Positions 1,420-58,436 of a DNA stretch of 64,000 nucleotides are shown in pieces. The notes below the pieces were generated by a model that did not search any database, was not told the origin of the DNA, and saw nothing but the letters and a program-made list of their open reading frames with translations. The position numbers and the translations under genes were made by a program. The DNA is from Eledone cirrhosa. Taxonomy: Eukaryota. Positions within the stretch are counted from its first letter, which is position 1. Each line of letters opens with the position of its first letter. Where the stretch lies: contig OZ024741.1 in NCBI GenBank assembly GCA_964016885.1, positions 218,612,001 through 218,676,000 of the forward strand, given 5' to 3'.

Positions 1420-1550
1420 TTTATCCCGGGTTCAATCGAGGGTAAGCACAGTAAGTAAGGTACTCAATACATATTTAATATAGAAAGGCTTCCTAATGAT
1501 TTCTCTCGAATGAAACAGTTCTATTCCTGTAGAAGCCTTTCTATATTAAA
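1420..1550. mobile_element. Penelope-like 3'-end fold-back remnant with a hammerhead-like fold
   Basis: A perfect 19-bp inverted repeat (1474-1492 / 1532-1550) encloses CTAATGA-TTTC..GAAT-GAAACAG..CTGT-A. The tail carries GTACTCAATAC. Same family as 53365-53575 and about 46514-46560. Confidence 0.65.
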
Positions 1551-1629
1551 TATATATATATATATATGTGTGTGTGTGTGTGTGTTTGTATGTATAAAGC
1601 AGTATCTGTGTGTATATGATATCATTAGT

Positions 1630-1822
1630 AATAATTATTTCTACTCTTGGCACAAAGCCAGCAGTTATCCCATTGTATTACTGGTACTTTATATTATCAA
1701 CCCCGTAAGGATGAAAGGCAAAGTAAAGCTCGGCGGGATTTGAACTAAGATCATAAAGGGCCGTAACTCTATGCTTCAAAACATGGGGTCCGACCCTCTA
1801 CCGATACTGCCAATCCACCTCC
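1630..1822 (-). mobile_element. tRNA-derived SINE with Nin/Deu-like domain
   Basis: Reverse complement of the family seen at 27903-28092 and 31528-31720 (GAGTTCAAATCCCGCCGAGG..GCCTTTCATCCTTACGGGGTCGATAAAATAAAGTACCAG). Confidence 0.8.
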
Positions 1823-2084
1823 CATTAGTAATAATATCAGTAGAAATCATGCTGCGTTATTTTACATTCGTAAAAAAGTTTGATATTTCCACTGTGGAGT
1901 ACACGTTAACTGAGTTTACTGTAAATATTTACGGATTGTGCACACATCTTGAGCTTGAAATCTTCTTGACATTTCTCGATTAAGCAGATTTCTCAGCTTA
2001 TTTAACTTTGTAATACCACCAACAGTACTAACATTATAACACCACCACTGCCAATAGCATTATTACTCAACTCCTCAATCGCAT

Positions 2085-5000
2085 ACCACCACCACCAGCA
2101 CCACCACCATCACCACATCCTCAATCAGATTTAACACCATCACCACCATCACCACCATATCCTCAATCGCATATAACATCATCACCACCACCGCCACCTC
2201 CTCAATTGCATATACTACCCCTCCACATACTCAATGGCATATACCAGCACCACCAGCACCACCACCACCACATCCTCATTTGTATATGCTACCACCATTA
2301 TCACCACCACCACATCAATCACTACCACCAACATCACCTACATTACCACTACCACCACCATCACCTCCATTATCACTACCACCACCATCACCTACATTAT
2401 CACTACCACCACATTCACCTACATTACCACTCCCACCACCATCACCTACATTATCTCTACCACCACCCTCACCACCACCATCACCTACATTATCACTACC
2501 ACCACCATCACCACCACCATCACCTACATTATCACTCCCACCACCATCACCTACATTATCACTACCACCACCATCACCTACATTACCACTACCACCAACA
2601 TCATCTACAATATCACTACCACCATCATCACCTACATTATCACTACCACCACATTCACCTACATTACCACTACCACCACCATCACCTACATTACCACTAC
2701 CACCACCATCACCTACATTACCACTACCACCACCATCACCTACATCATCACTACCACTACCATCACCACCACCATCACCTACGTTATCACTACCACCACC
2801 ATCACCACCACCATCACCTACATTATCACTCCCACCACCATCACCTACATTATCACTCCCACCACCATCACCTACATTATCACTACCACCACCATCACAT
2901 ACATTATCACTACCACCAACATCACCTGCATTACCACAACCACCACCATCACCTACATTATCACGAACCACCACCATCACCACCACAATCACCTACATTA
3001 CGACTACCACCACCATCACCTACAATATCGCTACCACCACCATCTTCTACATTACCACTACCCTCACCATCACCTATATTATCACTACCACCACTACCAC
3101 CACCATCACCTATATTATCACTACCACCACCACCACCTACATTACCACTACCACCACCATCACCTACATTATCACTACCAACACCATAACCTACATTACC
3201 ACTACCACCACCATCACCTACATTACCACCACCACCACCATCACCTACATTACCACTACCACTACAATCACCTACATTACCACTACCACCACCATCACCT
3301 GCATTACCACTACCACCACCATCACCTACATTACCACCACCACCACCATCACCTACATTATCACTACCACCACCATCACCTACATTATCACTACCACCTC
3401 CTACATTATCACTACCACCACTATCACCACCACAATCACCTACATTACCACTACCACCACCATCAACTACATTACAACCATCACCACCATCACCTATTTT
3501 ACCACTACCACCACCATCACCTATATTACCACTACCACCACCATCACCTACATTACCACTACCACCACCATCACTACATTACCACTACCACCACCATCAC
3601 CTCCATTATCACTACCACCAACATCACCTACATTGTTACTACCACCACCATCACCTACATTATCACTACCACCACCATCACCTACATTAAATCTACCACC
3701 ACCATCACCTACATTATCACTACCACCACCATCACCTACATTGTTACTACCACCACCATCACCTACAGTACCACTACCACCACCATCACCTACATTACCA
3801 CTACCACCACCATCACCTACATTACCACTACCACCACCATCACCTACATTACCACTACCACCACCATCACATACATTACCACTACCATCACCATCACCAC
3901 CACAATCACCTAAATTACGACTACCACCACCATCACCTACATTATCACTACCACCACCATCTCCTAAATTACCACTACCCTCACCATCACCTATATTATC
4001 ACTACCACCACCATCACCTACATTATCACTACCAACACCATCACCACCACAATCACCTACATTACGACTACCACCACCATCACCTACATTATCACTACCA
4101 CCACCATCTCCTAAATTACCACTACCCTCACCATCACCTACATTACCATTACCATCACCATCACCTACATTACCACAATCACCACCATCACCAGTACAAT
4201 CACCTACATTACCACTACCACCACCATCCCCTACATTATCACTACCACCACCATCACCTACATTACCAGTACCATCACCATCACCTACATTACCACTACA
4301 ACCACCATCACCTACATTACCACTACCACCACCATCACCTACATTACCACCATTACCACCATCACCACCACGATCACCTACATTATCACTACCACCACCA
4401 TCACCTACATTACCACTACCCTCACCATCACCTATATTACCACTACCACCACCATCCCCTACATTATCACTACCAACACCATCACCTACATTACCACTAC
4501 CACCACCATCACCTATATTACCCCTACCACTACAATCACCTACATTACCACTACCACCACCTACACCTGCATTACCACTACCACCACCATCACCTACATT
4601 ACCACCACCACCACCACCAACTACATTACCACTACCACCACCATCACCTACATTATCACTACCACCACCATCACCTGCATTATCACTACCACCAACATCA
4701 CCTACATTACCACTACCATCACCTACATTACCACTATCAACACAATTACCTACATTATCCCTACCACCACCATCACCTACATTACCACTACCACCACCAT
4801 CTCCTACATTACCACTACCACCACTATCACCACCACAATCACCTACATTACCACTACCACCACCATCAAGTACATTACCACTACCATCACCATCACCTAC
4901 ATTACCACAATCACCACCATCACCAGTACAACCACCTACATTACCACTACCACCACCATCCCCTACATTATCACTACCACCTCCATCAACTACATTACCA

Positions 5001-55908: not shown

Positions 55909-56469
55909 GGTGTTGATTGAACGCCTGCCTAACACTAACTTCCCTCCAACTTTATAACAGCAGTAGTAGGTGTTGATTGAACGCCTGCCTAACACTAACT
56001 TCCCTCCAACTTTATAACAGCAGTAGTAGGTGTTGATTGAACGCCTGCCTAACACTAACTTCCCTCCAACTTTATAACAGCAGTAGTAGGTGTTGATTGA
56101 ACGCCTGCCTAACACTAACTTCCCTCCAACTTTATAACAGCAGTAGTAGGTGTTGATTGAACGCCTGCCTAACACTAACTTCCCTCCAACTTTATAACAG
56201 CAGTAGTAGGTGTTGATTGAACGCCTGCCTAACACTAACTTCCCTCCAACTTTATAACAGCAGTAGTAGGTGTTGATTGAACGCCTGCCTAACACTAACT
56301 TCCCTCCAACTTTATAACAGCAGTAGTAGGTGTTGATTGAACGCCTGCCTAACACTAACTTCCCTCCAACTTTATAACAGCAGTAGTAGGTGTTGATTGA
56401 ACGCCTGCCTAACACTAACTTCCCTCCAACTTTATAACAGCAGTAGTAGGTGTTGATTGAACGCCTGCC
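55909..56469. repeat. Perfect 60-bp tandem repeat, about 9.3 copies
   Basis: Identical unit GGTGTTGATTGAACGCCTGCCTAACACTAACTTCCCTCCAACTTTATAACAGCAGTAGTA. Confidence 0.95.
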
Positions 56470-57494
56470 ACTGCCATCATCACCTCTTTCAACACAGCAT
56501 CCCTCAGCATATTACTGTTATTTTTATTTCCTTGAGAGCCACCATCACCATTGACCAAACTCCAAAGAGGATGAAAGGCAAAAAAGATGAACACTTTGAT
56601 GAGTGGGGATTCGATTTTGGGACTCAAACATAAAAATTAAAGAAAATCCTACTGAATATTTCTAATTGAGGGCTTGACTTTTAACTCCATCATTTCTTTT
56701 TGGGGGACCAGCTTGATGTCTTTACAGGGTGGGGCTAAAACATAGGTCCAGTTGTTAACACCAATAAATCCTCAAAATGTATATAAAATAGTGAGCAGGG
56801 CAGTGCAGGACAAGGGCTAGGGGAGGGCACAGAAGGGGGAATGGGGTGCATCATATTTAAAACAACTGTACAGAATAATATACATACATGTATAATGTAT
56901 GTATACATATATATGTAATGTATATATATGCATATGTATATAAATACATATATACATATACACACACATATGTATATTCATATATATATAAATATATATA
57001 CATACATGTATGTATATGTGTATGCATATATATATATATATATATACACACATATATATATATATACACATATATATATATATGTGTGTGTATAGTGAAT
57101 TAATAAGTTCCCAGCTGTATCACCAGATGACAGCATGTGGTAATACAAATGTCAGACAACTATAACAAGTAAAATATATATAAAATACCAGTTAACAAAT
57201 GGGGGAGTAAAAATACAAACAAACAATAAAATTAAAATATATAGATTGTGCTCCAAGCAGCTTGACCGGTTATCTAATTAGGTCTAATTAGTAAGGTTAG
57301 TTAATTGAAAACTATTAACTAGGCTAGTAAATGGATAGAAAATTTGGTGGTCATAATTCTAGATTTCTCGCAGATTCTACTGAAAAATGTTGCAACACAA
57401 ACAGATTTGACATGACAGGTTGGGTAATAATAATAATGACTTGTTTAAAATGAACAGAAAAAAAAACAAAATGAATAACCTTCTGTTGTAGCTC

Positions 57495-57820
57495 TAGTAG
57501 TAGTAGTAGATGTAGTAGTAGTAGATGTAGTAGCAGTAGTAGTAGATGTAGTAGTAGTAGTGGGAGTAGTAGATGTAGTAGTAGTAGTGGGAGTAGTAGA
57601 TGTAGTAGTAGTACTAGTGGGAGTAGTAGTAGTAATAGTGTGGTGATGGTGGTAGTTGTAGTAGTAATGGTAGTAGTGTGATACTGTTGGAAGTGGGAGT
57701 AGTACTGGTAGTAGTAGTGGTAGTAGAAGTAGTGGTGGTAGTAGTAATAGTAGTAGTAGTGGTGGTAGTAGTGGTGATAGTAGTAGTGGTAGTGGTGGTA
57801 GTAGTAGTAGTAGTAGTAGG
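57495..57820. repeat. (TAG/TGG)n low-complexity tract
   Basis: Mixed GTA/GTG trinucleotide repeats. Confidence 0.9.
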
Positions 57821-58158
57821 ACAGGAAATACTTGAGTAAAGATGTGTATGCGTGTATGTAAGTTAAGTGTGTGTGTGTATAGTTAAGTGTGTGTGTATGT
57901 AAGTTAAGTCTCCGAAAAATATATAATTATATATAGTTTGGAAATTGATGAAAGAATTGAAACCTAATCCTTCAAAGATCCAGAAGGGAGATAACCAATC
58001 CTTCAAAGATGAGGAAGGGAGGTAACCAATCCTTCAAAGATGAGAAAGGGTGTTAATGATGGTTTGAGATATATACTAACTATACATCTATACATGTGTA
58101 TATATACATGTTTATATATATATGTTTATATATATATATATATATATATATATATATA

Positions 58159-58436
58159 TTTAAAAGAATAGAGGTGTAACACACGAGTTGTGATATATTG
58201 GTAAAAGGAAAAGAAAATGCTGACAAATTGTTCCCAGTGAAAAATAGTTTAATTAGTAATAAGTAAAAATTAGTAATAAGTATTGGTTAGTATTCAATTT
58301 TGGTTTTAAAACCAAAACTTTAAAACCAAAACTGAATACTAACCAATACTTATTACTAATTTTTACTTATTCCTAATTAAACTATTTTTCACTGGGAACA
58401 ATTTGTCAGCATTTTCTTTTCCTTTTACCAATATAT
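58159..58436. mobile_element. Near-perfect fold-back element with an unpaired left tail
   Basis: Arms about 58193-58311 and 58319-58436; tail 58159-58192; (TA)n flanks. Confidence 0.7.

Follow-up and report, generated by a model that had tools for sequence, protein, structure and literature searches.

What gives rise to the short fold-back inserts scattered through a 64,000-nucleotide stretch of the Eledone cirrhosa genome (assembly GCA_964016885.1, contig OZ024741.1, positions 218,612,001 to 218,676,000; hereafter the window), and why do they carry an unpaired tail on one side only? They are probably short 3'-end copies of endonuclease-bearing Penelope-like elements (PLEs), mostly likely of the Hydra clade, whose shape would come from two starts of reverse transcription, each set by a hairpin in the element RNA. 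The overall pattern of insertion is already published (PMC8557442, PMC3846280), and the stubs belong to a known class, that of truncated inverted PLE insertions; the pair of hairpins is apparently an undescribed cis-element.

Twenty-four fold-back inserts were catalogued in the window and are referred to here by their approximate starts (Table 1). The 18 start coordinates given in the initial annotation all mark real fold-back inserts, to which those at 1420, 17951, 37875, 43746, 47329, and 58600 are added. Where the arms can be aligned, they are 18–441 bp long and 80–100% identical. The annotation had also described a common layout of (TA)n flanks with a tail on one side, which is borne out. 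Of 39 local inverted repeats, counted once duplicate pairings and three regions of tandem arrays are set aside, 19 have a (TA)n tract at one arm end and 10–140 nt beyond the other arm; 2000 random placements give 4.1 on average and 11 at most. This count of 19 includes one pair of short interspersed elements (SINEs) and misses two true elements in which TATATA sits in the arm boundary itself. The tails are about 30–90 nt long, that of 37875 being only 13 nt, and 23 of the 24 have a tail on one side only that measures about 30 nt or more, as had been claimed for 5'-truncated inverted insertions in which one arm lacks the tail; the tail of 17951 has been cut by a SINE. Later SINE insertions split both 17149 and 17951. 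The exceptions to the layout are a (CA)n tract to the left of 54310 and the lack of a left (TA)n at 37875. At 17 of 23 arm ends there is TA microhomology of at least 2 nt with the flank, where the null expectation has a mean of 5.0 and a maximum of 13. No clean empty-site joint is present among 15 of 468 joints listed, and (TA)n hides duplications.

A small symmetric hairpin at 47252–47302, with short TA runs on both sides, is a possible insertion with two tail-less arms. An unpaired remnant beside (TA)n at 19160–19240 is related to the family of 49399. The 144-bp inverted arms at 27733–28234 have a SINE at their centre, are not flanked by TA, and apparently lie within a repeat also found at 48136–48309.

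The tails have a bulged hairpin in common. It takes the form RCTC-stem-loop-UU-GAGYRC, with a lower stem of RCTC/GAGY, a 2-nt 3' bulge, and a variable upper stem, and it is present in 16 of the 24 fold-back tails if degenerate cases are counted, as well as in the stub at 55067, which has no inversion. All but one of the 12 TTGAGYRC words in the window are in element tails, these 11 all being in the sense of the tailed copy. A covariance model made from 35 Hydra-locus sequences, with no window sequence among them, has its 12 best window matches in element tails (E<0.1), while the next match has an E of 1.1. The octopus copies include a compensatory change in the lower stem, with ACTC/GAGT in eight tails in place of GCTC/GAGC. 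A protein-coding motif was rejected, since the motif is upstream of the ATG in full-length loci, and a host transcription-factor site, suggested by a resemblance to NK-homeodomain sites, was rejected on account of the covarying stem.

The place of the hairpin in complete elements was read from reference loci, fetched by a pattern for the coding motif of the Hydra reverse transcriptase (RT). Of the 110 metagenome loci obtained, 30 have short flanks only; the 80 with flanks and two further loci make 82, in 72 clusters at 85%. The Hydra protein is characterised by RWK, DKT, a CxCX5C linker, and an endonuclease that lacks CCHH. Such marks are present in these loci (RWK in 27/44, DK[TS] in 35/51, and CxCx(4-6)C in 44/60), and all are complete in L070. 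Excluding L001, which was bacterial flank, a strict hairpin is found in 19 of 23 leaders, these being from loci in which 100 nt or more precede the N-terminal motif, with two hairpins in nine of them, and also in 9 of the 15 loci that have sequence after the 3' hammerhead core. The full-length leader, seen in 16 loci, has the order hammerhead, first hairpin (H1), 41–57 nt, second hairpin (H2), and ATG. Both hairpins are likewise present in the held-out locus L114. The Hydra clade is a large one, with 3342 proteins at E<=1e-20 among 8000 scored. Loci L002 (a contig in a Denitrobaculum metagenome-assembled genome, MAG), L003, and L114 (a bacterial MAG) have Hydra-type PLEs and hammerheads in contigs filed as bacterial, which probably reflects contamination from an animal host or mis-assembly.

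Pairing in the upper stem was assessed in 42 distinct non-coding instances, each defined by two anchors with no filter for pairing. In the register with the 2-nt bulge, the first upper-stem position is Watson-Crick in 34 of the 42 (18 C-G, 14 U-A) against a shuffled mean of 15.8, while four other registers give 3–9 pairs. The second position is Watson-Crick in 25 of 40, with four types of pair, against 11.4 when shuffled. In the 35-sequence alignment 94.7% of cells are paired, with 31 double changes, and none of 500 shuffles is as high; the rows of that alignment were picked for having the motif, and the anchor-only test is therefore the fairer one.

The published Hydra consensus sequences, judged by eye, have the hairpin intact in three of six and in variant form in two of six (PMC8557442 supplement). 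In the Hydra-1_Obim consensus of that supplement there is no hairpin, the tail being absent. An exact-word search of its Naiad and Chlamys consensus files found one similar hairpin, in the 3' region of one Naiad; this is a perfect copy of the bulged hairpin, more than 200 nt from the end of the consensus, and may be due to chance or transfer. The main text of PMC8557442, which defined the Hydra clade, mentions neither a stem-loop nor a hairpin, and no description of the hairpin pair was found in a literature search that did not reach Repbase, Dfam, or subscription journals.

The ends of the copies fall beside these hairpins. In 13 of the 16 hairpin-bearing fold-backs (one read by eye) the tail-less arm ends between -1 and 11 nt before H1. 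In the case of the other three, the 5' strand of the hairpin is unrecognisable in 1420 and 53365, and 47329 stops earlier. None of 17 window tails has a second hairpin; the tails extend 30–69 nt from the GAG of H1 to (TA)n, as compared with the H1–H2 spacing of 41–57 nt in the 16 loci. Among the reference loci, H1 is preceded by tail-less ends at 3 nt (L052), 5 nt (L070), 11 nt (L008), and 3 nt (L029 against L069), and H2 by tailed ends at about 8 nt (L055), 1–3 nt (L031), and 5 nt (L007). In L055 (2480–2570 plus leader), the full-length copy starts at hammerhead stem I and the 52-nt inverted copy that precedes it is the tailed one. The 5' boundaries of L004, L037, and L075 start 3–25 nt before a hairpin, after TA-rich sequence, which starts of reverse transcription set by the hairpins do not explain.

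These sequence comparisons somewhat favour H1 and H2 as the features that set the two starts of reverse transcription. There is about an even chance that each of the tandem leader hairpins is the dock for one subunit of a dimeric, telomerase-related RT, whose start it fixes a few bases upstream, with twin priming then giving one tailed and one tail-less arm. The element protein, probably as a dimer, would bind H1 and H2 on its own RNA and nick both strands of (TA)n. Each nick would pair with a UA-rich stretch of 2–8 nt in the RNA, immediately 5' of a hairpin, and so prime complementary DNA (cDNA), which would lack the tail if primed at H1 and include it if primed at H2. With one priming on each strand of the self-complementary (TA)n, two cDNAs would meet head to head and be joined by microhomology, often at the self-complementary stems of the hammerhead. 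In the least supported step, priming in the 5' leader would leave only the part of the RNA belonging to the pseudo-long terminal repeat (LTR) to be copied, which could explain why the copies are short. The products may then be by-products with no open reading frame (ORF), and cleavage by the ribozyme would be unnecessary to explain them. Were the start chosen independently for each arm, at least half of the inserts would be expected to be symmetric, whereas there are at most two symmetric candidates (47252–47302 and 37875) against 23 that are asymmetric.

In the twin priming of LINE-1, two target nicks prime two cDNAs, and their joining by microhomology produces a 5' inversion. In L1 inversions there is no duplication of one segment in the two arms, nor is there a fixed second start. 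The Poseidon PLE of Anolis can also be compared with what is proposed here: in vitro it nicks AT-rich DNA and extends it on both strands, and begins reverse transcription at two internal positions that delimit the tail; its protein is a predicted dimer, and cleavage by the hammerhead is dispensable (Frangieh et al. 2024, PMC11167929). The Poseidon starts are within the ORF, in a stem-loop that is AC-rich, and the accessible text of that paper defines no conserved motif for them, whereas the Hydra-type ends are in the 5' leader, just upstream of two conserved hairpins with a putative function.

The hairpins could, with rather little probability, be signals of the leader instead, for binding of a protein, control of translation, or an internal promoter, with the copy ends adjoining them only because a UA-rich stretch is the best primer on (TA)n. 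The first ATG is indeed just 9–62 nt after the GAG of H2, and the sequence immediately 5' of H1 is often TA-rich. However, the ends that precede H2 in L031 and L007 lie outside (TA)n, and although TA dinucleotides abound all along the arms, 13 of 16 ends are confined to a 12-nt interval.

A role for the motif in DNA is unlikely too, if less so. The GIY-YIG endonuclease would recognise it, as the two-fold symmetric GAG-YR-CTC or as a hairpin in single-stranded cDNA, and nick a few bases upstream, which would trim one arm and make tandem junctions. The near invariance of GAGCAC-TC across the loci is in keeping with this, as is the finding, cited in PMC11167929, that the Penelope endonuclease of D. 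virilis needed the tail for recognition (Pyatkov 2004). So are the copies of L004, L037, and Hydra-1_Ajap that begin just before a hairpin, which the two starts of reverse transcription alone do not predict. That the upper stem varies and still pairs in one register would be needless in a double-stranded site, and the TA microhomology at the ends suits priming.

With stems I, II, and III all required, a strict hammerhead descriptor finds eight folds in five elements and none elsewhere in the window, against none in 40 local dinucleotide shuffles; if one core mismatch is tolerated there are 10 folds in seven elements. The annotation's figure of about ten elements with a core stands, a core with GAAA being retained in 10 of the 24, and the many that it describes as carrying hammerhead folds are under half of the elements; a strict fold is found in 5 of 24. 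Hammerheads of the Hydra style, with U.U at 10.1-11.1 and a palindromic stem III, are seen in 27291 and in families C and D; in family A the first pair of stem II is another one, and the core is absent from all four copies of family B. No hammerhead is among the Rfam matches listed (150 of 232), which are noise resembling microRNA hairpins, and this carries no weight, since Rfam is also blind to those in 10 Hydra-type loci. Except in 1420, single tails and hammerheads have unremarkable folding energies. The self-cleaving motifs that the annotation had these elements scatter are putative, and minimal PLE hammerheads are poor cleavers as monomers (PMC4209133). An unpaired remnant beside (TA)n at 39568–39700 (-) has a degenerate hammerhead core at 39679.

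In 7 of the 10 core-bearing elements the core is 0–13 nt from the start of the copy, and in family B, 54310, and 58600 the turn is within the presumed core or 3' of it (partly by eye); these positions fit microhomology joining at hammerhead stems. The turn is at the cleavage site in 1420 only, where this coincides with stem I. The same clustering of turns in or just 5' of the hammerhead would be given by a snap-back, in which a single cDNA folds at a hammerhead stem, copies itself, and stalls at the tail boundary, and palindromes at inverted junctions have been read as self-priming (PMC3846280). We regard this as improbable. The tail-less arms of 1420 and 26981 are longer than the tailed arms and hold sequence that is missing from them, which argues against a plain snap-back unless the other arm was shortened by later deletion; moreover, the tailed arm is the inverted one in L055.

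The arms belong to several unrelated families, as the annotation had it. BLAST groups them into four multi-member hairpin families (A, 17149, 17951, and 42265; B, 39231, 47329, 53607, and 54859; C, 1420, 46515, and 53365; D, 53864 and 54310), one further pair, and singletons. The families within 53340–55720 are high-copy, with a summed contig depth of 1e4–1.5e6 over the elements as compared with 12–41 over the unique flanks (run X1), although summed depth is not a copy number. Further copies of family B also run into (TA)n (167 contigs, 3957 reads), and a family B probe has no match in prokaryote or viral contigs.

The annotation had taken these inserts for non-autonomous, retrozyme-like units, and mini-elements of this or a MITE-like (miniature inverted-repeat transposable element) kind, amplifying as fixed fold-back units, are favoured by the high-copy families. 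No hairpin-bearing copy reaches an ORF, and 43746 has 212-bp arms that are 100% identical. Even so, the idea has very little probability, as the turn points differ among members of families A–D and among aligned contigs, the termini are asymmetric, and longer contigs continue upstream of families B, D, and 55222. There are no tandem arrays of hammerhead monomers in the window, which has a single partial tandem of two copies (49399–50421). No DDE transposase is evident in the list of window ORFs, and no search aimed at DDE was made beyond that list. Derivatives of MITE or DDE elements were rejected for the one-sided tails and variable turn points, 43746 excepted. Non-LTR retrozymes are, like the inserts, non-coding and PLE-derived with a type I hammerhead, but are head-to-tail repeats with a hammerhead in each unit, as opposed to head-to-head stubs with variable turns (bioRxiv 10.64898/2026.07.22.740005).

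That inserts with a hammerhead or hairpin are of PLE origin, as first suggested in the annotation, is almost certain. It is tied directly to a PLE protein at 28413, and 16 of the 24 share the tail hairpin with Hydra-clade PLEs. The protein link, consisting of a GIY-YIG C-terminus and an ORF start, is seen in one of the 24 only; no PLE coding sequence is present in the other 23 fold-backs in the window. At 28858–29040, 60 residues match the end of GIY-YIG domains, which by sequence is the type of 16 of 20 HMMER matches, the other four, including the top one, being unrelated HYR-repeat proteins. A word-seeded protein search with the 60-residue fragment had no match, and an Atlas search gave a GIY-YIG lead only, scoring <0.9. 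Protein P0024, a relative of the fragment, carries RT plus GIY-YIG, and among true protein relatives of a window fragment the best carries the label Octopus bimaculoides. The relatives of the 28413 element have an RT with DKG, a short Cys linker, CCHH residues, and GIY-YIG at the C-terminus. The fragment does not match the Hydra protein, and the element looks Nematis-like. No loci of the Nematis-like group were found, so that the absence of the hairpin from that group is that of one element, 28413. A tail that reaches the ORF start, as at 28413, an adjacent inverted truncated copy, and a one-sided tail have all been described for PLEs (PMC3846280, PMC8557442).

The hairpin, the style of hammerhead, and the (TA)n flanks together make it likely that the hairpin-bearing families belong to the Hydra clade. 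In that clade there is insertion into (TA)n with a hammerhead near the 3' end, and in its File S2, as in several window families, the first pair of stem II is U.U and stem III is palindromic; the clade is present in Octopus bimaculoides as Hydra-1_Obim, and the tail hairpin is visible in published consensus sequences (Craig et al. 2021, PMC8557442). The window copies differ in lacking an ORF and in having tails of about 50–90 nt instead of 30–40 (PMC8557442). PLEs are numerous in octopus (PMC13282606). A Naiad origin was dropped, there being no match by eye to the 3' ends of Naiad_Obim, _Ovul, or _Omin, and the window families having hammerheads.

A number of observations weigh against hairpin-set starts in Hydra-clade elements, in addition to the copies that begin just before a hairpin. 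No hairpin-bearing window family reaches a Hydra ORF, and by eye the published Hydra-1_Obim hammerhead matches none of the window families. The count of the bare 8-mer is 12 where 4.9 are expected, single tails show no folding advantage over shuffles (z -0.3 to -1.3), and the swap of C-G for U-A at the first upper pair mostly follows H2 versus H1 and may be one old event. There are just seven comparable locus ends, three of them across families that are related but not identical; L002 ends about 30 nt short of H1, and the break in L014 is inside the hammerhead. Arms that look unequal could result from central deletions in long palindromes. Six fold-backs have neither hairpin nor scored hammerhead and share the same architecture, including 28413 with its protein remnant (the other five, 37875, 38811, 43746, 55222, and 58159, are assigned by architecture alone), and therefore the hairpin cannot be the general cause of PLE tails.

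The inserts resemble published inverted 5'-truncated PLE insertions in being head to head, with a tail at one end and palindromic junctions (PMC8557442; Arkhipova et al. 2013, PMC3846280). Unlike these, the window inserts have arms that are mostly <250 nt, and their two ends correspond to two copies of a single conserved structure. Where the PLE tail and inverted insertions come from is stated to be open in PMC8557442 and PMC11167929, the accessible text of which defines no RNA signal for internal initiation, and it is for this reason that the hairpin pair matters. If the proposal is true, the PLE tail would have a defined cis-signal, one that is also a portable docking module about 30 nt long. 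Conserved across many Hydra-type families and lying beside the two end sites, the hairpins provide exact mutations for the existing in vitro assay and bear on how telomerase-related RTs choose the start on their template. The hairpin is also a short diagnostic for ORF-less Hydra fragments, which Rfam misses; even a full Hydra protein is missed by Pfam.

Table 1. Fold-back inserts, related remnants, and protein traces in the window (positions are those of the window)
Feature	Position	Strand	Remarks
Fold-back stub, family C	1410..1552	-	Hammerhead core (1493, + strand) only in inverted tail-less copy; tailed copy begins at stem I 3' strand; part of tail hairpin deleted, with GAGTAC at 1465
Fold-back stub, family A	17149..17928	-	Strict hammerheads 17339(-), 17468(+); tail hairpin 17202-17246; SINE splits inverted arm, which resumes at 17895-17928
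Fold-back stub, family A, SINE-split	17951..18360	+	Cores 18063(-), 18081(+); tail cut at hairpin start
Fold-back stub, family A-like by eye	26981..27268	-	Strict hammerhead 27167(+), inverted copy only; tail hairpin 27026-27074
Fold-back stub	27293..27508	+	Hydra-style hammerheads (U.U first pair of stem II) 27371(+), 27358(-); degenerate hairpin candidate in tail
Long fold-back of C-terminal-endonuclease PLE (Nematis-like in appearance)	28413..29701	+	Inverted arm 28413-28856, then direct copy 28857-29651 and tail 29652-29701, which lacks the hairpin
Final 60 codons, with stop, of PLE GIY-YIG endonuclease	28858..29040	+	56% over 54 aa to P0024
ORF start within tail, MLEANFNTL	29673..29701	+	Resembles P0024 N-terminus MLQANYKTL
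Fold-back stub	33687..34095	+	Hammerhead-like by eye, core non-standard; weak model score for tail hairpin 34005-34053
Small fold-back, 13-nt tail	37870..37985	+	Assigned by architecture alone
Fold-back stub	38250..38546	-	Tail hairpin 38285-38327
Fold-back, 50-nt tail	38811..39158	+	No hairpin or scored hammerhead
Fold-back stub, family B	39232..39468	-	Tail hairpin 39268-39315
Fold-back stub, family A	42268..42802	+	Strict hammerheads 42611(+), 42366(-); tail hairpin 42706-42748
Fold-back, 212-bp identical arms, 531-bp spacer	43746..44749	+	About 48 nt to next TA run; could be DNA transposon
Unpaired family C remnant	46510..46575	+	BLAST grouping
Degenerate fold-back stub, family B	47316..47486	+	GAGTAC at 47431
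Inverted arm and partial tandem of two direct copies	49399..50421	+	Cores 49600, 50092; tail hairpin 49828-49877
Fold-back stub	50490..50763	+	Cores 50605(+), 50585(-); tail hairpin 50692-50736, the best model match
Fold-back stub, family C	53366..53577	+	Strict Hydra-style hammerhead 53424(-); GAGTAC at 53519
Fold-back stub, family B	53608..53816	+	Tail hairpin 53731-53778
Fold-back stub, family D	53862..54074	+	Hydra-style core 53930(-); tail hairpin 54014-54057
Fold-back stub, family D, left flank (CA)n	54310..54489	+	Hairpin 3' strand mutated
Fold-back stub, family B	54860..55052	+	Tail hairpin 54967-55014
Stub without inversion, between two (TA)n runs	55067..55205	+	Starts at hammerhead-like core; tail hairpin 55120-55169
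Fold-back, about 45-nt tail, high-copy family	55224..55711	+	No hairpin or scored hammerhead
Fold-back, 33-nt tail	58159..58432	-	No hairpin or scored hammerhead
Fold-back stub, 21-bp arm	58590..58770	-	Tail hairpin 58618-58662

The window is otherwise AT-rich animal DNA with several fragments of long interspersed elements (LINEs). Exons of a G-protein alpha subunit gene (Pfam G-alpha) are present at 16870–17030 and 24900–25040 (+), and the stubs 17149 and 17951 are in the intron between them. At 19357–21819 (+) a LINE has an open frame of 820 codons containing RT and a PHD finger, and the fragments at 1–1105, 24067–24504, and 50781–52966 are related to it. A frame of 127 codons at 42968–43351 has repeated QRRRRAA motifs and no Pfam match. 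There is a 14-kb array at 2320–16656, made up of 525 copies of a 27-bp unit rich in ACC/ACT, with a related 1.5-kb array at 25090–26548, and a 60-bp unit is repeated 9.4 times with 100% identity at 55909–56469.

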